Shown: positions 6,477 to 50,897 of the stretch, one piece after another
Numbering within the stretch: position 1 is the first letter of the stretch
How the letters are laid out: each line of letters opens with the position of its first letter
Assembly (NCBI GenBank): GCA_964575605.1
Contig: CAZNRN010000020.1
Coordinates: forward strand, 306 to 64,305
Origin: an uncultured Micavibrio sp.
Lineage (GTDB): Bacteria > Pseudomonadota > Alphaproteobacteria > Micavibrionales > UBA2020
Direction of reading: 5' to 3'
DNA length: 64,000 nt
Translations under genes and position numbers: made by a program
Notes under the pieces: generated by a model
The model's input: the letters and a program-made list of their open reading frames with translations, nothing else
Told to the model about the DNA's origin: nothing
The model's database searches: none

Positions 6477-7577
6477 TTAAGGTACGGGGGGCTTGGGTTG
6501 CTGCGGCTGAGCGGCGGGCGCTGCCTTGCCGATATGCTCTTCGAGGAAGTCGATGATTTTCAGCGCGGCGGCGTCCTTGTCTTTCCAGCTTTTGGCCAGC
6601 TGCAGCGCATCAGCCGGTTTCGCGCCATAGGACAGGCAGAGGTCGAAGCCCTCGGCGGGCTTTTTCGACGAGCGCAGCGCGGAGAGAAGCATGCTGCTGT
6701 TTTCCGCCGTCACGTCGATGTTGCCGGTATCGAGCAATATCTTCACCGCGTTCAGGCTGCCGTTCAAAAGGCCATGGGCGATATCCTGCCTGTCGCCTTT
6801 CATGCCGAGGCCGAGCATCAGTTTCACCAGCCCGCCATTGTCGCTGCCGACGGCGGTGTAAAGCGCCTCGCCCGCGCTTTTGTCGTTCTGGGGCGTCGCG
6901 CCCTTGCTGACCAGGTATTCGGCGATGTCGTTATGGCCGTATTTCACCGCCTGCAGGAAGGGCGTCCAGAAACCTTCGGCGCCCTTGTTGATGTCGGCGC
7001 TTTTCACCTCGACCAGATGGCGGATCATCTTCATGTCGGGTTCGCGCGTCGAGATGGCGTGCAGCAGCGCCGCGTTGCCGTCGGCGCCGTGTTTCAGCAT
7101 CAGGTTGACTTTTTTCATGTCGCCTTCGTCCATGCCGAAATTCATGGCGGAGGGGAAGTAACCTTCGGGGCGCTGGTCGGCCGAGGTGTTGCAGGCCTTG
7201 ACCAGATATTCGGCCACGCGGTAATGGCCGTGCAGCATCGCGGTGTGATAGGCGGCGGTTGCGGGCGCGTGCAGCGTCCAGCCGCGCTCTTCTTCCGGCA
7301 CAGTCACCTTGAATTTTTCGCAGAGCGTCTGCATCGCCTGCAGGCGGCCGAACATCGCCGCGGTTTTCAGCACGTTGGTCGCGTTGACGCTTTTGATCGC
7401 GCCCTGGCGCCAGCCGTATTTTTCGTTGTCGATCGCCTCGATCGCGGCGTCGATGCGCCACTGTTTGCCCTTGGCCAGTTCCTGCACCAGCGCGGCTTCC
7501 TTTTTATAGACCGGCAGGTCTTTCAGGCGCGCAACCATATGCTTGTAACGGAGCGTTTCCTTGGCGGGCGTGGGCAT
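6477..7577 (-). CDS. Ankyrin-repeat protein with conserved N-terminal TLRYKHMVARLK module
   Basis: ANK-like repeats, e.g. TPFLQAVKYGHNDIAEYLVSKGATPQ and GDMKKVNLMLKHGADGNAALLHAI. The N-terminal ~50 aa are shared with 7704..8690. The C-terminus is a Pro/Gln-rich tail. Confidence 0.7.
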   Translation of the reverse strand: MPTPAKETLRYKHMVARLKDLPVYKKEAALVQELAKGKQWRIDAAIEAIDNEKYGWRQGAIKSVNATNVLKTAAMFGRLQAMQTLCEKFKVTVPEEERGWTLHAPATAAYHTAMLHGHYRVAEYLVKACNTSADQRPEGYFPSAMNFGMDEGDMKKVNLMLKHGADGNAALLHAISTREPDMKMIRHLVEVKSADINKGAEGFWTPFLQAVKYGHNDIAEYLVSKGATPQNDKSAGEALYTAVGSDNGGLVKLMLGLGMKGDRQDIAHGLLNGSLNAVKILLDTGNIDVTAENSSMLLSALRSSKKPAEGFDLCLSYGAKPADALQLAKSWKDKDAAALKIIDFLEEHIGKAAPAAQPQQPKPPVP

Positions 7578-7703: not shown

Positions 7704-8690
7704 TTAGAGCGCGGGGCCCGTCGTTGTCGGCTTGGGCGCGGTGGCGGGCGGCGGGTTCTTGGGCTCGTAACCCACGACCTTCATGTCCTGCTTTTGCGCT
7801 TCAAGGTACAGAGCTTCCTTCTGCTCGTCCGTGCCATAGACGCGGATCGAGGTCCAGCCGCGGGTGCGCGACGCAGCGACGATGGCGGCGGCGTCGAAAT
7901 TGTCGAAGCCCTGCTGCTGGTTGCGCGTGCCGATAAACTCGCGGTTCTCGGCCTGTTCGCTCCAGCCGAAGGTGCGGCCGTTTTTCAGCGTGAATTCGAT
8001 GCCCTGCGACGAAATCTCGGCCTCTTTCAGCGCGGATTTCAACTGCGGCGCGACGGCGGGCACTTTCCACGCGTCGATGAAAACCTTTTCGCCGTCAAGC
8101 TCGAGGTCGGTTTTGAACTGCACCGGCACGACAGGCACGGCAGCGGGCTGCGCCGCGGGCTCGGACAATTTAGTTTCAAGGTGCGCGGCCGCTTTCTGCG
8201 CGCCCAGCGCCACGGCCTGTTTATGCAGGGTTTCCGCATCGGCGCCGGTTTTCAGCAGGAAGTTCAGCTTGCGCACGTCGCCTTCCGCCATTGCTTTCGA
8301 GGTGGCCTCGGGCGCTTTCGCAGCCGTTGCGCCGCGGTCGTAGAGCGAGCGCGCGGTTTTGTAATTGCCGTTGCGCGCGGCGATGTCGAAGGCCGTCTGC
8401 ACCGGCTGTTCGCCGTGGATCAGGCCCAGCGTATCGACGATTTTTTCAATCGTCTGCTGGCGCGCGTGGATGGCGGTGTTCTTGAGGATATTTTCGATGT
8501 CGAAGGTGCGCCAGTCGGGCGGGCTGACCGCTTCCAGCGCGGCGTCGATGCGCCATTGCTGGCCGTCTGCGATTTCCTCCAGCAGCGCGGCTTCTTTTTT
8601 GTAGGACGGAAGGCCTTTGAGGCGCGCGACCATGTGCTTGTAGCGCAGGGTATCTTTCATGTCCCTCGCGGTGGACGGTTTCGTTGCCAT
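7704..8690 (-). CDS. Paralogous TLRYKHMVARLK-module protein with degenerate ANK repeats and a distinct C-terminal domain
   Basis: The N-terminus DTLRYKHMVARLKGLPSYKKEAALLEEIADGQQWRIDAALEA matches 6477..7577. There are weak ANK repeats (TAFDIAARNGNYKTARSLYDRGA; GDVRKLNFLLKTGADAE). The C-terminal GWTSIRVYGTDEQKEALYLEAQKQDMKVVGYEP is reminiscent of LPD7-type domains (tentative). Confidence 0.55.
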   Translation of the reverse strand: MATKPSTARDMKDTLRYKHMVARLKGLPSYKKEAALLEEIADGQQWRIDAALEAVSPPDWRTFDIENILKNTAIHARQQTIEKIVDTLGLIHGEQPVQTAFDIAARNGNYKTARSLYDRGATAAKAPEATSKAMAEGDVRKLNFLLKTGADAETLHKQAVALGAQKAAAHLETKLSEPAAQPAAVPVVPVQFKTDLELDGEKVFIDAWKVPAVAPQLKSALKEAEISSQGIEFTLKNGRTFGWSEQAENREFIGTRNQQQGFDNFDAAAIVAASRTRGWTSIRVYGTDEQKEALYLEAQKQDMKVVGYEPKNPPPATAPKPTTTGPAL

Positions 8691-39353: not shown

Positions 39354-39959
39354 ATGGCCACAAAACGCAAACTGACCCCGCAGCAGATCAAGCGCCCCTC
39401 CCGCGACGAGGCGGAGGCCGCGATCGCAACGCTTATCCGCTGGATCGGCGAGAACCCCGAGCGCGAAGGATTGAGGGAAACGCCCCGCCGCGTCGTGCGC
39501 GCGTTTGAAGAATATTTTGCAGGCTATGCGATGAAACCCGAAGAAGTGCTGGACCGGTACTTCAAGGAAGACATGGGCGGCTATACCGACCCTGTGCTGA
39601 TCCGCAATATCGAGGTTGAATCGCGCTGCGAACACCACATGGCGCCCTTTATCGGGCAGGCGCATGTCGCCTATATCCCGAACGGCCGCGTGCTGGGCCT
39701 CTCGAAAATCGCACGCGTCGTCGATATGTATGCGCGCCGCATGCAGGTGCAGGAACGCCTGACATCCGAAATCGCCAATACCCTGAATCAGTACGTGAAG
39801 CCCAAGGGCGTCGCCGTGCTGATCGAGGCCGAGCATTTCTGCATGAAGGTCCGCGGCGTCAAGAAAGACCACTGCAAAACCGTCACCACGCGCTTCCTCG
39901 GCGCTTACAAGCGCGATGCCGCTTTGCGCGAGGAATTCTTCGCTTCCATCAAAGGCTGA
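39354..39959 (+). CDS. folE: GTP cyclohydrolase I
   Basis: [14 protein letters not shown] ... CEHHMAPF ... RMQVQERLT are FolE signatures. Confidence 0.93.
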
Positions 39960-41323
39960 GCGGTAACCGCCGCCGCTTTCTGCATCGACGCCGTGACCTC
40001 CGCCAGGTTCGCGAATTTTTCGGCGAATATCTTGCCGTCGCAATTGCCGGTCATCAGCACGTCCGTCAGGCGCTCCATGTCTTTCGCCGGGATTTTGCCG
40101 TCATAGGCGTTCACGAGGATGCCCGCGACATCGGCTGCGAAATCGCGCAGGCGTCCGGTGCCGAAGGTGACATCCATGAACTTGCCGCCGTTATTCACCG
40201 CCGCATCGCGCGATTTCAGGTAGAGGTCTGCGTCCTGCTTGGGGTTGCCCGTGAAGCCATAGTCTTTCAGCAGCGCGTCGAAATCATCCGCCGCCTTGCC
40301 GTCCGGTACCAGCGCCGCGGTCAGCAGTATCGCCATCACGGGCTGGTCGTAACCGCTGTCCGCGCCGCGTACTTCCATGCGCTTGCCGATGGCTTTGCCC
40401 GCTTCGTCGCGCAGGTTGCAGATTTTCACGTCGTTATAGAGGAAGGTTTCGGCCAGTTCATAGTTTGACTGCGTGCCCAGCCCCTGCTCCACCAGTTTCG
40501 CATAGGTGATGCGGTTTTCTTTCGACGCGGGGATCAGGCCGCCCTCGGCGTTATAGGCGAAGTGCATCGGCGCGTTGAAGACCGCTTCGATGTGGTTGCG
40601 GATGAATTCATCGCCGGTTGACGATTTCAGGAATGCGGGCGAGACGCCGCCGGCCTCGCCATAACCGAGGTAATATTTACCGCGCGGCAAATAATCGAGT
40701 TTTTTGTCTTCATCCATGATGTAGTTGGACGAGGCGTTGCAGGACGCCATCAGCAAAGGCGTCAGCGCATAGGCGCGCTTCACCATGCGAAACATCTGCT
40801 CGGGGTCTTCGGGGCTGAAACTGGTTTGCACAGATGAGGTGAGCATCGGCAGGCGCAGGGTGTTTTCGTCGAAAATTTCCTGCATGGCCTTTAACGACAC
40901 CTGCAAGCGCTCGCGGCTGACCATGTTGCCGAGCGCTTCTTCGCGCGTCGTCGTGGGCACGATGGAGAACTGCGGGCGGGTGAAGCCTTCGTCATTCGCG
41001 GCCTTGTCGAACACCGCGATATCTTTTTTCACCGCACGCAGCAGCGCCGCGACATCGTCGTTTTGTAAGGCGGGACTGGCGTATTCGATGACGCCCGCAG
41101 GTTCCAGCTGCGCGTCGTAGCCCATGTCCTTCATTTTTTTTTGCAGCGCCTGCATTTCGAGGGCGGTGGGCAGCGCGGGTTTCGATAGGCCCGGTTTCAC
41201 CAGCGGCATTTCAACCTCGGCGCCAATTTTTCCGGTGTACCGTTTGGGCGGCGGCGCATAGAGCGGCAGCGCGTCTTCAAACGACGAAATCTTTTTCAGG
41301 TTGGTTTTTTGCACGTCCGTCAT
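39905..41323 (-). CDS. Glutamate--cysteine-ligase-family (GCS2 / plant-type-like) carboxylate-amine ligase, paralog 1
   Basis: [47 protein letters not shown] and [10 protein letters not shown] parallel the plant/alpha-type GCL blocks IGTEHE, T.TVQVNLDFS.E.DM..K.R..L.L.P...A.FANSP and LEMRGADGG. Its 3' end overlaps folE convergently by 55 nt. Confidence 0.62.
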
Positions 41324-41561: not shown

Positions 41562-42968
41562 TTACATCGACGGTTTTCTTTGGCGCGCCGCCACCAGCTG
41601 CGCGGGTGAGCTTGCGTTTTTCTGCAGCGCCGCCGTCACATCGGACAATCGCGGATAGTTCTCGGCATGGCGTTTCGCATCGCAGTCGCAGGTCAGCAGG
41701 ATATGGCAGAGCGTGGACAGTTCGGCCCTCACCTGTTTATCGGCGCCGTAATGGTTCACCATCAGCCCAGCGACATCCGCCGCGAAATCACGCAGGGAGC
41801 CGGTGCCGAAGGGCACATCCATGAAGCGCCCGCCATGATCGACGACGGCAGCGCGGGAGGATTTCAGCAGCGCCGCATCCTCGCGCGGGTTGTTGGTGAA
41901 GCCGTAGTCTTTCAGCAGCGCGTCAAACTGCTCCGCCGTCTTGCCGTCGGGCAGCAGGGCGGCCGCGAGCAATAACACGCTGGCCGGCTGGTGCAGGCCT
42001 GAATCGGCGGGGCGCAGTTCGATGCGCTTGCCCACCGTGTTGCCCTCGGCATCGCGCAGGTTGCAAATTTTGATATCGTTATAGAGAAAGCTTTCGGCAA
42101 GCTCGTAATTCGCCTGCGTGTTCATGCCCTTTTCAGCCAGCTTCGCGAAGGTCAGCACATTGCCCTTGGTCGAACGCACCATGTTGCCTGCGGGGTCGAA
42201 GGCGAAGAACATCGGCGCGTCGAAAACTTCGCGGATATGGTTATCCACCAGCTCCGCGCCGTTGGTTGATTTGAGGAAGGCCTCCGATATGCCCCCCGAT
42301 GCGCCGTAAACCTCGTAGTATTTCGAGCGCACATGCGCATCCTGCCGGGTATTGTCGTTGCAGGCGAAGCCCGTGCCGCTGTTCATCGCCGCAATCACCA
42401 GCGGCACCAGCATGTAACCGCGGCGCGCCATGTTGAACATCTCGTCGTTGTTGCGGGGCGAAAGGCTTGCCTGCACGCCCGTCGTCAGCAGCGGGATATT
42501 GGCGGTTTCGGGGGTATAGACCTCGTTAATCACCGCCAGCGCCGCCTCCAGCCTTTCGCGGCCGACCTTGTTTTCCAGCGCTTCCTCGCGCGTGGTGGTG
42601 GGCAGGATGGAAAAGGGCGCGCGGGTATAGCCGTGTTTGGCGGCTTCCGCCTCGAACAGCGCGATATCGGCCTTTGCCTGCGCGATCAGCTTCGGCGTAT
42701 CGGCGACCGGCACCGGCGGGCTTGCGTATTCAAGCACGCCTGCGGCTTCCAGCTGCGCGTCATGGCCTTTTTTCTTTAAATCGGCATGCATCTGCAGCAT
42801 TTCGGCGGCGGTCGGGATCTGCGGCTTTGTCGCGCCCGGTTTGTACAGCGCCATTTCAACCTCCAGCCCTATCTTGCCCTGATAATCGGGCGGGGGCGCG
42901 GCGTAGAGGCTGCGCGCTTCTTCGATGGAATTGATAAGACGTGTCCGGTCTTTCCTGACGTCGGTCAT
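41562..42968 (-). CDS. Glutamate--cysteine-ligase-family carboxylate-amine ligase, paralog 2
   Basis: Collinear with paralog 1, with roughly half the residues identical by eye. Blocks: KIGLEVEM, LTTGVQASLSPRNNDEMFNMARRGYMLVPLVIAAMNS, RIELRPADSG. Confidence 0.62.
   Translation of the reverse strand: MTDVRKDRTRLINSIEEARSLYAAPPPDYQGKIGLEVEMALYKPGATKPQIPTAAEMLQMHADLKKKGHDAQLEAAGVLEYASPPVPVADTPKLIAQAKADIALFEAEAAKHGYTRAPFSILPTTTREEALENKVGRERLEAALAVINEVYTPETANIPLLTTGVQASLSPRNNDEMFNMARRGYMLVPLVIAAMNSGTGFACNDNTRQDAHVRSKYYEVYGASGGISEAFLKSTNGAELVDNHIREVFDAPMFFAFDPAGNMVRSTKGNVLTFAKLAEKGMNTQANYELAESFLYNDIKICNLRDAEGNTVGKRIELRPADSGLHQPASVLLLAAALLPDGKTAEQFDALLKDYGFTNNPREDAALLKSSRAAVVDHGGRFMDVPFGTGSLRDFAADVAGLMVNHYGADKQVRAELSTLCHILLTCDCDAKRHAENYPRLSDVTAALQKNASSPAQLVAARQRKPSM

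Positions 42969-43950: not shown

Positions 43951-43951
<1 letters not shown>
43193..43951 (-). CDS. nadK: NAD kinase
   Basis: The GGDGSMLRA motif; 252 aa. Its start overlaps the glmM stop by 1 nt (TGATG). Confidence 0.9.
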
Positions 43952-45309
<1,358 letters not shown>

Positions 45310-45453
45310 TTATTCATTCCCTCAATTACGGAACGTAACCTACTTGAATCATCGCATGCGGGACAACAAAACAGAAGCGTTTTAATTTCCATAAAATAAG
45401 GAGTTTGGATAACGTTTTGATGCAGATTGCGACAGACGAGCAGGAATAAGGGG

Positions 45454-46269
45454 TTAGTTACCGAGCCGCGGCGGCTTCGACAGGCCGCCGATGGCCGAAA
45501 CGTCCGAGGTGCCGCCACGCTGGCGCAGTTCGGCCAGGGCGGATTCGAGGCTGGATTTGTCGCCGATCTGGTCGAAGCCGCGGGTTTCCACCGTTTCGGC
45601 GCTGGTCTCGAGGTTGCGGTAGAGCGTGGTGCGTTCGCGCGCCGCAAAATTGAAAATCTCGGTGATGCGGTAGCCAATGGCGGGCTCTTCCGTCACGCGC
45701 GCGATGCGCTCGCCGGGCAGTTTGCGCCACTGGCCGTCGTCTTCGGGTTTGGCCTCCGCCACGGCGGCGGGCGTTGCCGCCGCGGGCATCAGGCTGCGGA
45801 GCAGCGCCGCCGCATCTTCCTGACGGTTCTGTTGCGCCATATAGAGCGGCGTGCGGTTGTTGTAATTTTTCTCGGACGGGTTCATGCCCTGCGCGACAAG
45901 GTACCGGATAACGTCTTCATGCCCGCGTTCCGCCGCCGTATGCAGCGCGCTGCTGCCGTTGCTGTTCTTTTTATGCAGCAGCTGCGGGTTGACGGCCAGC
46001 AGCATCTGGCAGATCTCGACGCTGCCGTTGCGCGCGGCGTGGTGGAGCAGCGTGCCCTCCCCGCCGTCCGGCGCATCGACGCGCGCGCCCTTGTCGAGCA
46101 GCATCTGCGCCGCGTCGCGGTTGCCGTTGTAAACCGCATGCCAGAGCAGCGAACGGCCTTCGGCATCGGTGCCGTTGGCGTCGACGCCGCGGTCGAGCAG
46201 CCCTTTCACTTCCGCGTTCTCGGCGTGGGAAATGGCGTAAATCACCCTGTTGCGGCCGAAGAAAACCAT
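45454..46269 (-). CDS. Ankyrin-repeat protein with conserved FNFA-RER C-terminal module (copy A)
   Basis: ANK repeats (RSLLWHAVYNGNRDAAQMLLDKGARVD, TLLHHAARNGSVEICQMLL, SALHTAAERGHEDVIRYLVAQGMNP). CTD: W..L....IA.VT.....GYRITEIFNFAARER ... FD ... GG ... KPPRLGN. Confidence 0.8.
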   Translation of the reverse strand: MVFFGRNRVIYAISHAENAEVKGLLDRGVDANGTDAEGRSLLWHAVYNGNRDAAQMLLDKGARVDAPDGGEGTLLHHAARNGSVEICQMLLAVNPQLLHKKNSNGSSALHTAAERGHEDVIRYLVAQGMNPSEKNYNNRTPLYMAQQNRQEDAAALLRSLMPAAATPAAVAEAKPEDDGQWRKLPGERIARVTEEPAIGYRITEIFNFAARERTTLYRNLETSAETVETRGFDQIGDKSSLESALAELRQRGGTSDVSAIGGLSKPPRLGN

Positions 46270-46270
46270 G

Positions 46271-47044
46271 TCAGCCCTGCTGCGGCGGCGGCAACCGCGG
46301 CGATTTTTTCAGGCTGCCGGATTCCACAACCGCGGGGTCGGCATGGCCGCCCAGCGCCTGCAGCGCATTGAAGGCATCCTGCAACTGCTGGCGGTCGGGC
46401 AGGCGGTCGAAAGACGTGCTTTCCATCGTATCCGCGCCGGTTTTAAGGTTGTTGACGATACGGATGCGTTCGCGGCTGGCGAAATTGAACACATCGGTCA
46501 TCTTGTAGCCGAGCTTGGCATTCAGCGAGGTGACAGCCACCTGCCCGTCGCCCATCAGTTCCCACTCGCCCGCCTTTACAACAGGCGCGGGTGCTGCGGG
46601 TGCGGCCTCGATCGCTTTGGGCTGCGGCTGCAGGTCGACAAGGTGCGCGATTTTCTTGGTGAAAGGCGCCAGCACTTCGGCCACTTCGGTGGCGCCGCGC
46701 GCGCGGGCCCAGCCGAAAGCGGTGCGGCCCTCGACGCTGAGCAGGTTCGCATTTGCGCCTGCGTTCATCAGGCGCACGACGACGGCAAGGCGGCCTTCGT
46801 AGGCGGCGGCATGCAGCGGCGTCCAGTCATACTGGTTCTTGCGGTCGACTTCCGCGCCTTTTTTCAAAAGCATCTCGACCATTTCCTCGTAGCCGTTGAC
46901 GGCGGCAAGATGCAGCGCCGTGTCGCGGCAGTCGCCGATATCAAGGTCGATACAGCCGGGGTGTTCGTCGATCAGTTTCGACAGCTTGTCGGTTTTGCGG
47001 CTCATCACAAGCTTGCGCATCTTGCGCTTGAGGAAATAATGCAT
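46271..47044 (-). CDS. Ankyrin-repeat protein with conserved FNFA-RER C-terminal module (copy B)
   Basis: ANK repeats (TALHLAAVNGYEEMVEMLLKKGAEVD, TPLHAAAYEGRLAVVVRLMNAGANAN). CTD: GYKMTDVFNFASRERIRIVNNLKTGADTMESTSFD. There is a 1-nt gap to each neighbouring gene. Confidence 0.8.
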   Translation of the reverse strand: MHYFLKRKMRKLVMSRKTDKLSKLIDEHPGCIDLDIGDCRDTALHLAAVNGYEEMVEMLLKKGAEVDRKNQYDWTPLHAAAYEGRLAVVVRLMNAGANANLLSVEGRTAFGWARARGATEVAEVLAPFTKKIAHLVDLQPQPKAIEAAPAAPAPVVKAGEWELMGDGQVAVTSLNAKLGYKMTDVFNFASRERIRIVNNLKTGADTMESTSFDRLPDRQQLQDAFNALQALGGHADPAVVESGSLKKSPRLPPPQQG

Positions 47045-47045
47045 A

Positions 47046-47891
47046 TCAGGGCTTCCTTTCCGGCGCCTGCAGCCGCGGTTTCACGGAGGCGAAGCCCGCG
47101 GTATTGCCGCCCAGTTCTTTTAGCGCGGCATGCGCTTCGTCCAGCTGGCGGCGGTCGGGCAGCGCGTCGAAAGGCGTGGTTTCGATGTTGTCGGCCTTGG
47201 TCTTGAGGTTATTCACGATGCGCAGGCGTTCGCGGCTGGCGAAATTAAACACTTCGGTAATCTGGTAGCCGAGTTCGGGCATGGACGACACAGTGGCAAC
47301 GCTGCTGTCGGATACTTTTTTCCACTTCGCGGGCGGTGCAACGGGTACGGCCTCGATTGCCTTCACTGCGGGTTTCTTGACGCTTTCCAGCAGGTCGACG
47401 ATGTCCTGGTGGTTGCCCTGGAAGGCGTAACCGATGGCCAGCTTGTCATGCGCGCCCTTGATGGCGGGATCGAAGCCGTGCTTCAGCAAAATCTCGACAA
47501 TTTCTTTATGCCCGGCCGCCGCGGCGCAATGCAGCGCGGTGTTGCGGTGGCCGTCAACGCGGTTTTTCAGCGTATTGTCGTATTTGTCGTGTTCCAGCAG
47601 GCGTTCGACCAGCGCCTTATGCCCGTGCTCGGCCGCCACGTGCAGCAGCGTGCAGTAACGGTTGCCGGTTGCTTCGTGATGGCCGTAGTTTTTGGTGAAA
47701 TCGGCGCCGCGGCGGATGAGCAGGTCGACAACCTCGACATGGCCCGCAATCGCGGCGGCCAGTATCGGCGTCATGCCGTAAAATGTTTCGCTGGAAACGT
47801 CGTAGCCCCGGTCGAGAAGCTTCTCGACCGTCTTCACGTCGCCCCGTTCGATAGCGGCATAGATGCGCTCATGGCGGCTCAGGCCGAACAT
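47046..47891 (-). CDS. Ankyrin-repeat protein with conserved FNFA-RER C-terminal module (copy C)
   Basis: ANK repeats (TPILAAAIAGHVEVVDLLIRRGADF, TLLHVAAEHGHKALVERLL, TALHCAAAAGHKEIVEILLKHGFDP). CTD: GYQITEVFNFASRERLRIVNNLKTKADNIETTPFD. Confidence 0.8.
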   Translation of the reverse strand: MFGLSRHERIYAAIERGDVKTVEKLLDRGYDVSSETFYGMTPILAAAIAGHVEVVDLLIRRGADFTKNYGHHEATGNRYCTLLHVAAEHGHKALVERLLEHDKYDNTLKNRVDGHRNTALHCAAAAGHKEIVEILLKHGFDPAIKGAHDKLAIGYAFQGNHQDIVDLLESVKKPAVKAIEAVPVAPPAKWKKVSDSSVATVSSMPELGYQITEVFNFASRERLRIVNNLKTKADNIETTPFDALPDRRQLDEAHAALKELGGNTAGFASVKPRLQAPERKP

Positions 47892-47978
47892 GCGGCCTCA
47901 CTCGACTTCAGCAAGCGGAAATAAACGCGGCGCATGCACATGGCCCGAACTTCGCTGGTGATTGTGTAACGATGTACT

Positions 47979-48007
47979 TTGATAGCCGTAATAACGCGCA
48001 GCGTCAA
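47979..48007 (-). promoter_or_regulatory. Sigma-70-type promoter for the ANK operon (TTGACG-N17-TATCAA)
   Basis: Minus strand: TTGACG (48007..48002) and TATCAA (47984..47979), about 90 nt upstream of the start at 47891. Confidence 0.4.
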
Positions 48008-48066
48008 TTCTGGCAAAGGCGCAGGACGCGGCCTAAAATATCCATAATCTTAAAACAAGCGTGAAA

Positions 48067-48825
48067 TTATTTGCGTTTCTTGCGCGCGGGGGCTGTGCGC
48101 TTGGCCTTTGCGGCAGGCTTCGCGCGTTTTATGGGTTTCGGCGTCTCGGCCAGCAGCGCCTTGCGCTCCTTCTCCGGGAATCGCTCGATGGCATATCTGA
48201 GCGTCGTGCGCGGCATGCGCGGGCCGTTCTTTTTGATAAAGGCCTTCAGGCGCGGCATGTCTTTCTTGCCGGCTTCGCGCAGCATCCAGCCCGTCGCCTT
48301 GTGGATCAGGTCTTCGTCGTCATCCAGCAGCTTTTCCGCCAGCTTGAAAGCATCATCGACATCGCCGTTGCGGATGAAGTGCCAGGTCGAGACCATGGCG
48401 ATGCGCCTGTCCCACATCGATTTGGCAATCGCCATGCGGTAAAGCAGCTCGCGCCCGCGTTCCATCAGGTAAGGGCCCACGATATAGGGCGCGCTGTCGT
48501 CGACGCCGTCCCACTGCCGGATGGAGCCGCGGTGTTCCATGTAGAACTCGAAGATCTTGCGCTGCGCGATATCGTCGGCCTTCTTGAACTGCAACCGCAA
48601 AATCGCATGGGCGAGCGAGCGTTCGTCATGCACGTTCGAGGTAATAAGCTCTTTCAGGTGGTCGAAGCCGAGGTCGTGGAACTCCTTCGCAACGCCGCGC
48701 AGCAGCGGCGTGGTGACGCCCAGGAATTCGTCGTTCTTCGTATCCTTGAAGAAGCCGCGGTAGGTCTTCGCCTTTTTGGGGTTGGCGTGGCGGCGCAGGG
48801 CCTTGCGCGCGGCGGCAGCTGTCAT
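48067..48825 (-). CDS. DNA alkylation repair protein (AlkD-like HEAT-repeat)
   Basis: RRHANPKKAKTYRGFFKDTKNDEFLGVTTPLLRGVAKEF ... HDERSLAHAIL ... WMLREAGKKD fits the AlkC/AlkD-like family pattern. The tail is Lys/Ala-rich. Confidence 0.72.
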   Translation of the reverse strand: MTAAAARKALRRHANPKKAKTYRGFFKDTKNDEFLGVTTPLLRGVAKEFHDLGFDHLKELITSNVHDERSLAHAILRLQFKKADDIAQRKIFEFYMEHRGSIRQWDGVDDSAPYIVGPYLMERGRELLYRMAIAKSMWDRRIAMVSTWHFIRNGDVDDAFKLAEKLLDDDEDLIHKATGWMLREAGKKDMPRLKAFIKKNGPRMPRTTLRYAIERFPEKERKALLAETPKPIKRAKPAAKAKRTAPARKKRK

Positions 48826-48843
48826 GACGGCACCTTTTGAAGG

Positions 48844-50808
<1,965 letters not shown>

Positions 50809-50897
50809 GCAGCTCCACCCTCGTAAAAGCGCAAAAAAGCGCGCGCATTCCACGCGCACTTTGTGCGCATTTACAATTATATAGTGCCACAGAGGGC

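Follow-up and report, generated by a model that had tools for sequence, protein, structure and literature searches.

ANKM, a lineage-restricted family of ankyrin-repeat proteins with an apparently new C-terminal domain in Micavibrio-like bacteria

Introduction

In the ANK-PRANC and ANK-F-box proteins of poxviruses, Orientia and Wolbachia, and in the eukaryotic ASB proteins (ANK with a SOCS box), a variable N-terminal head of ankyrin repeats (ANK) binds the client, and a short constant C-terminal domain docks the members of a large paralogous family to one shared machine. Here we describe three adjacent genes with a similar layout in DNA of an uncultured Micavibrio sp. (Alphaproteobacteria, Micavibrionales), namely in a stretch of 64,000 nucleotides from GenBank assembly GCA_964575605.1 (contig CAZNRN010000020.1, positions 306 to 64,305), which we call the window and number from its first letter. 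The genes had been noticed in a reading made from the letters without database searches (the sequence-only reading), and they belong to a large paralogous family of their own. We have coined the name ANKM for this family, whose members consist of ANK, a C-terminal module of five β-strands and a helix (the β5α module), and a basic tail.

The likeness to the PRANC, F-box and ASB families is an analogy of design and not homology. In those families the constant part is a helical motif of ~40–50 aa (PRANC, F-box or SOCS box) that binds SKP1 or Elongin, whereas the ANKM module comprises 76 aa in five strands and a helix, and ANKM has no ubiquitin system to dock to. A different likeness is to the SspB-type adaptors of AAA+ proteases, which also have a β-rich body, a flexible linker and a short basic or hydrophobic C-terminal peptide that tethers them to the machine; one of the ANKM sites lies directly downstream of ftsH, but SspB shares no homology with ANKM, the tail motif of ANKM is loose, and the adjacency to ftsH, found at one of four sites, may be plain inherited synteny. 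Membership in the PRANC, SOCS-box and SspB families is excluded because the fold differs and there are no sequence matches; Pfam detects neither PRANC nor F-box in ANKM.

A conserved C-terminal domain of ~100 aa with a charged or low-complexity tail is likewise shared by diverse paralogs among the Bep proteins of Bartonella (the BID domain with its positively charged tail) and the XVIPCD proteins of Xanthomonas and Lysobacter, the latter serving contact-dependent killing of bacteria. BID is, however, a helical bundle, whereas the ANKM module is β-rich and has no sequence or Foldseek match to BID or XVIPCD. Of the features of Bep-like substrates of VirB/D4 systems, ANKM has the positive C-terminal tail (in 97% of members), but Pfam gave no match to BID or another recognised type IV secretion system (T4SS) domain on the modules of 52 members. 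No T4SS or coupling protein is encoded in the window or in the ~85 locus flanks, and none is reported in cultured Micavibrio. Furthermore, and unlike the Bep and XVIPCD proteins, ANKM is core, syntenic and under constraint at the level of housekeeping genes.

The Dot/Icm Ank effectors of Legionella and Coxiella (NCBIfam T4SS_AnkX/Y/G/H and others) are also ANK proteins of host-dependent bacteria, but their C-terminal regions are unrelated to the module, and the NCBIfam models for them score only 18–49 bits against ANKM, over the ANK repeats alone, where the cut-offs are 450–1400. Another ANK protein of an obligate bacterial predator is Bd3460 of Bdellovibrio, which is periplasmic, consists of ANK only and is encoded beside its DD-endopeptidase partners (PMC4686830). 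ANKM differs from it in lacking a signal peptide, in having an extra domain and in having no enzyme partner beside it, and does not belong to the Bd3460 type.

Results

The array encodes three proteins of one architecture

All three genes lie on the minus strand, with 1 nt between neighbours, as the sequence-only reading had described from the open reading frames (ORFs). Gene A (47046..47891, −) encodes 281 aa, gene B (46271..47044, −) 257 aa and gene C (45454..46269, −) 271 aa, and each product consists of ANK repeats, a Pro/Ala linker, the β5α module and a basic tail. The A/B and B/C junctions read TGA-t-ATG and TGA-c-ATG, and a Shine-Dalgarno-like run, GGAAAGGAAG, precedes gene B. The G+C content of the three genes is the same as that of the surrounding DNA. 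The three proteins are present in NCBI and IMG, where they come from an environmental contig and are called 'ankyrin repeat protein' or 'hypothetical protein'; protein B is identical to a database representative (P0001). Antisense ORFs at 45427..46371(+), 46250..47206(+) and 47130..47924(+) were rejected as genes, because it is the minus-strand frames that hold the ANK domains, the homologs and the high third-position G+C (0.77–0.83, as in the flanking genes and typical for the genome).

The ANK repeats that had been read in all three proteins were recovered by Pfam in their N-terminal 135–170 residues with E values of 1e-16 to 1e-30 (2e-27 for protein A), while the last ~100 residues gave no Pfam match. 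Ank_2 alone scores 60–104 bits in all three against a cut-off of 27.3, which places them in the Ankyrin-repeat clan of Pfam (Ank). In NCBIfam, A, B and C matched only ANK-repeat models, below threshold, and matches in PADLOC and PHROGs were limited to the ANK repeats. In the AlphaFold 2 (AF2) model of protein B, residues 1–135 form paired helices all along.

The C-terminal module is apparently a new domain

In an alignment of the three copies of the module (~76 aa), 29 positions are invariant, among them W, GY, T, FNF, RER, NL.T.A, FD and GG, and the alignment reproduces the motif that the sequence-only reading had drawn up. The copies occupy 47106..47336(−) in gene A (residues ~186–262), 46340..46570(−) in gene B (residues ~159–235) and 45484..45711(−) in gene C (residues ~187–262). 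A six-frame scan with the family profile, a hidden Markov model (HMM), found exactly these three copies in the window, with E values of 1e-33 to 1e-36; the module HMM gave 6e-33 for A and 3e-36 for C. We define ANKM by a C-terminal W…[IV]A.V…GY.[IL]T[ED][IV]FNF..RE…N[LI].T.AE…FD…L..A...L...GG followed by a net-positive tail, and A, B and C all have the profile match as well as the tail.

AF2 on an alignment of 52 modules, which covers the module of A, predicts with confidence (pLDDT 88.3, pTM 0.73) a five-stranded antiparallel meander (β1 6–11, β2 14–21, β3 26–33, β4 38–45, β5 50–57), then an amphipathic helix (64–76) and a GG turn, after which the tail is of low confidence. Modelled in full length (pLDDT 92.4, pTM 0.66), protein B contains the same elements, with strands at 161–165, 168–175, 180–187, 192–199 and 205–211 and a helix at 218–230. 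Both of its domains, the module included, exceed a pLDDT of 94, whereas the Pro/Ala linker reaches 63–80, residues 140–160 being of low confidence. The confidence of the linker, together with a pTM of only 0.66, suggests two independently folded domains joined by a flexible tether. The isoelectric point of the module is 4.9–7.2, i.e., neutral to acidic.

We found no relative of this domain. Pfam (with 3 and later with 52 members), NCBIfam, PADLOC and PHROGs contain no match to the module, nor do the PDB sequences when searched with a single sequence or with a profile, and Foldseek with the predicted module returned no neighbour in PDB or BFVD. The sequence-only reading had been unable to place the module in any family, and this was borne out: the module is a real domain, no other part of the proteins is as conserved, and it matches no known housekeeping domain. 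We consider it apparently new, with no relative in curated libraries. Three candidate likenesses were discarded. PHB_acc_N (PhaR) appeared as one match among 150 full-length members, was not repeated on the 52 modules and is regarded as noise; weak phmmer matches to ribosomal protein uS11 (E 0.16) disappeared with a profile; and a PilZ-like RxxxR reading of 'RERLR' fails because the second Arg is not conserved (RERTT in protein C) and PilZ itself gives no match.

The basic tail is a family-wide feature

Beyond the module, the tail of A (47049..47105, −) is basic, Pro/Lys-rich, disordered, of low pLDDT and of net charge +3; that of B (46274..46339, −) is basic and reads …SLKKSPRLPPPQQG, and that of C (45457..45483, −), also basic, reads …GLSKPPRLGN. 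These tails had been listed correctly, and they represent the whole family, since 97% of 288 members carry a net positive charge over their last 15 aa (median +3). The tail after the GG turn has a median of 22 residues and is rich in Pro, Lys, Gly, Leu, Ala and Arg, with only loose conservation of a motif L-x-K-[PK]-x-L-P. In the last 50 aa, the residue composition (LDAVTSIF 0.52, KHPMWC 0.18) does not discriminate for a type I secretion system (T1SS); no RTX repeats are found in A, B or C, and no T1SS genes adjoin the loci. Judging from the model of protein B, ANKM has no N-terminal signal peptide or other export signal, because the N-terminus is predicted to be the first ANK-cap helix.

The family is confined to Micavibrio-like genomes

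An exhaustive profile search with the module over 1.84 billion cluster representatives gave 656 proteins at E<=1e-3, of which 249 reach E<=1e-10; a word-index homology search returned nothing for the module alone and just four short proteins for the module profile. Among the best 150 matches the module is always C-terminal, in proteins of 250–480 aa, and 138 have Pfam ANK, the remainder being mostly fragments or divergent ANK. One of the 150 has a non-ANK N-terminus and one has two modules. The database representative P0096 (249 aa) carries two tandem divergent β5α modules in one polypeptide, which hints at a possible action of the module in pairs.

A scan of genomes, one per species, identified 79 loci, all from metagenome-assembled genomes (MAGs), with 151 copies of the module in co-oriented arrays of one to four genes and at least 4–9 copies per genome. 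The labels of the loci are Alphaproteobacteria, Micavibrio sp., Rhodospirillaceae and 'Bdellovibrionales', with DASPMW01 (loci L009, L020 and L040), labelled Patescibacteria group, as the one exception. We take the latter label to be a misassignment; the others agree with each other since the NCBI taxonomy still files Micavibrio under Bdellovibrionales. In genomes, the module is thus found only in Micavibrio-like alphaproteobacterial MAGs, and it is absent from plasmid and phage collections. The paralogous family that had been suspected from the three genes is real, with ANK as the near-constant partner of the module, and the suggestion of a host-associated lineage was borne out in that these are prey-dependent, Micavibrio-like predators. 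A description of an ANKM family or domain was not found in the literature on Micavibrio ankyrin proteins and on Micavibrionales. The supplementary tables of the paper on Micavibrio aeruginosavorus ARL-13 have no 'ankyrin' entries.

The arrays occupy conserved sites and are under purifying selection

Clustering of neighbouring genes showed four conserved chromosomal sites for ANKM, all amid housekeeping genes. Site I, with 24 loci including the window, has the order ybgF-tilS-ftsH, a DNA-alkylation-repair gene, one to four ANKM genes, glmM and NAD kinase. At site II, ANKM stands between glutaryl-CoA dehydrogenase and rpiB-glyA; at site III, two to four ANKM genes stand between phenylalanine hydroxylase and FAA hydrolase-HPPD; and at site IV, ANKM follows aspS and an FAD oxidoreductase. 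More distant subfamilies also form arrays of two to five genes among housekeeping genes. No secretion, mobile-element or toxin genes adjoin the loci (~85 examined).

The order of paralogs is fixed at site I, where the A-type gene comes first, the B-type, often absent, second, and the C-type last, and this A-(B)-C order between ftsH and glmM is kept in >20 genomes. In 12 genomes the array begins with an ortholog of gene A. Orthologs of the C-type are found most widely, and it is this form that occurs as a singleton at the site. The distance from stop to ATG is −8 to +6 nt in 58 of 68 adjacent family pairs, 21 of which have ATGA overlaps.

Compared with the closest relative (locus L001), genes A, B and C have ratios of nonsynonymous to synonymous substitution rates (dN/dS) of 0.245, 0.135 and 0.195, respectively. 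The neighbours range overall from 0.06 to 0.25 (tilS 0.247, alkylation repair 0.211, ftsH 0.175, glmM 0.122), and ANKM is accordingly under purifying selection at the level of its housekeeping neighbours. Identity to L001 is 84–91% in the module, 69–88% in ANK, 58–67% in the linker and 58–75% across linker and tail. Deeper orthologs and the paralogs, in each comparison, likewise show greater conservation in the module than in ANK. These data show that ANKM is old, has been inherited vertically and forms, in multiple copies, part of the core genome of one lineage.

A conserved block precedes the array

Upstream of gene A we find a block of 59 nt (47954..48012, −) that is identical at 53 of 59 positions to L001, although the surrounding intergenic DNA has diverged and the flanking genes show a synonymous divergence (dS) of ~0.78. 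It holds the TTGACG-N17-TATCAA that the sequence-only reading had proposed as promoter (48007..47979, −) and a downstream ATCGTTACACAATCA segment. The hexamers are present as described, but a strict consensus promoter scan did not list them, because the final T is absent from the −10 hexamer. The conservation of the block lends modest but real support to a promoter and leader, and the block is likely to be the promoter and leader of the array; it may also combine a promoter with an operator or leader. We found no counterpart in front of other arrays, nor in genomes further removed.

Other genes in and around the locus

In proteobacteria, folP is the usual gene between ftsH and glmM. In the window (43951..50859) this interval is filled by the AlkD-like DNA-alkylation-repair gene and the ANKM array, and folP is absent from this position in all 24 related loci. 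About ten related genomes have an insertion between the ANKM array and glmM that is absent from the window; in site-I loci L005–L012 and L030 it is an opposite-strand gene of ~450 aa (cluster c20, not annotated). The FtsH ORF (48844..50859, −) has a GTG start and an N-terminal extension with an Asn/Asp run, so that either the start is mis-called or the protein has an unusual low-complexity N-terminus. Further along, 39905..41323(−) and 41562..42968(−) encode tandem paralogs of ~470 aa with no Pfam or NCBIfam match, whose homologs, often duplicated as a pair, come after glmM-NAD kinase in almost every site-I locus of the related genomes; they look like another lineage-conserved family, with no function assigned.

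The sequence-only reading had counted five ANK-type proteins in the window by adding 6477..7577(−) and 7704..8690(−). The former does have ANK, but the latter has none at E<=1e-3 and carries LPD7 instead, and the β5α module is absent from both. The two adjacent genes are paralogous in their first ~170 aa only, where identity is 40%, and have in common a strongly conserved N-terminal segment K[ED]TLRYKHMVARLK.LP.YKKEAAL..E.A.G.QWRIDAA.EA, after which 6477..7577 goes on with ANK repeats and 7704..8690 ends in LPD7 (PF18821). LPD7 is a known part of polyvalent proteins in conjugative elements and phages.

Discussion

We tentatively favor the view that ANKM proteins are modular adaptors or scaffolds, in which the ANK head would bind a client and the β5α domain with its tail would dock a shared partner or assemble the paralogs. 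The paralog-specific ANK solenoid of each protein would bind a protein client, so that the heads supply differing specificities, and the flexible Pro/Ala tether would join this head to the constant domain, which together with the basic Pro/Lys-rich tail could bind one shared partner, or the same element of another member. As the module is more conserved than ANK, the constant domain could do a common job and the heads paralog-specific ones. Tight translational coupling and long-kept gene order are typical of products needed in a fixed ratio, which is why we favor adaptors or scaffolds: the products of an array could act jointly and in fixed stoichiometry, whether by forming a hetero-oligomer or by serving one machine as a set of alternative adaptors. 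Such a set of adaptors would be a core function of the lineage, and its main action would be inside the predator cell and not in the prey. The targeting or oligomerisation domain that the sequence-only reading had offered as its other option fits these data better than the link to type IV secretion. An ANK head with a constant C-terminal adaptor domain is a design already known; the domain is apparently new.

Several points weigh against this view. ANKM genes occur as singletons at two of the four sites, so that hetero-oligomerisation cannot be obligatory, and the shared partner of the module is hypothetical. ANK expansions in bacteria are classically secreted effectors, and a conserved C-terminal domain with a basic tail also resembles a bipartite export signal. 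The kept synteny reflects vertical descent and says nothing direct on function. Finally, a distant known fold may be missed, as Foldseek covered PDB and BFVD.

A possible but less probable explanation is that ANKM proteins are translocated effectors, the β5α module and basic tail forming a bipartite C-terminal signal that an export machine recognises for delivery across the predator–prey junction, where the ANK heads would bind proteins of the prey or of a eukaryotic host. This would suit a family that is restricted to an obligately prey-dependent lineage and that combines many paralogs, a variable head and a constant C-terminus with basic tails in 97% of members. As there is no Sec signal, any export would have to take a C-terminal or other non-Sec route, and in Orientia, Ehrlichia and Rickettsia, ANK proteins with C-terminal signals serve as T1SS or T4SS substrates. 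Secretion is furthermore up-regulated when Micavibrio attaches to its prey (PMC3189940). On the other hand, the same study reported the genome of Micavibrio aeruginosavorus ARL-13 to lack a type III secretion system (T3SS) and a T4SS (PMC3189940). None of the ~85 loci is adjoined by secretion genes, no BID, PRANC or RTX domain is present, and the composition of the last 50 aa does not discriminate for T1SS, though by itself it is compatible with it. Orthologs are kept in fixed order across the order Micavibrionales, and the fixed core positions, the kept paralog order and a dN/dS like that of housekeeping genes are not the usual behaviour of effectors in an arms race. The specific link to type IV effectors, which the sequence-only reading had drawn while correctly seeing no secretion-system genes in the window, finds no support in the data, given the lack of secretion genes at the loci and of a known signal domain and the housekeeping-like constraint.

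A more speculative and rather unlikely variant is that the β5α module and basic tail are the recognition signal of an undescribed contact-dependent delivery route in epibiotic predators, in which case the ANK heads could seize conserved proteins of the prey.

We regard it as improbable that the proteins serve as localisation scaffolds, their ANK heads being tethered to an anionic surface (nucleic acid or the inner face of the membrane, e.g., at the attachment pole) through the tail and possibly through the exposed side of the sheet. The K/P/R-rich basic tail is nearly universal, and β3 and β4 show an alternation of conserved Arg, Asn and Thr with hydrophobic residues that, from the alignment and the predicted secondary structure, would put the conserved polar residues on one face of the sheet. 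The module itself is, however, neutral to acidic, the tail motif is conserved only loosely, and nucleic-acid-binding families and folds gave no match to the module. Least probable is that ANKM neutralises the predator's own hydrolases in the manner of Bd3460, since, despite this example of a bacterial predator that uses an ANK protein for immunity (PMC4686830) and the many hydrolases encoded by Micavibrio, the signal peptide is absent, no toxin or hydrolase is paired with the arrays (their neighbours being ftsH, glmM, rpiB, glyA, phenylalanine hydroxylase and HPPD) and the extra constant domain would be left unexplained.

To our knowledge, no mechanism has been described by which epibiotic predators of the Micavibrio kind kill their prey and drain it, and we know of no predator-specific protein family tied to this process. 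A family that is multi-copy, strongly conserved and lineage-restricted, with a confidently predicted new domain, is therefore a candidate for lineage-specific biology, and ANKM could have a role in predation, in the organisation of the attachment pole or in cell-cycle control. With its single constant domain and single tail, it offers an experimental handle on these processes. It also adds a bacterial case to the design of a variable ANK head with a constant docking domain, so far represented by ANK-PRANC and ASB. If instead the reading of module and tail as a delivery signal were true, ANKM would be the first effector family of the 'leeching' predation of the Micavibrio type. In conclusion, ANKM is a lineage-defining family in poorly understood predators, with a tentatively proposed role as adaptor or scaffold.

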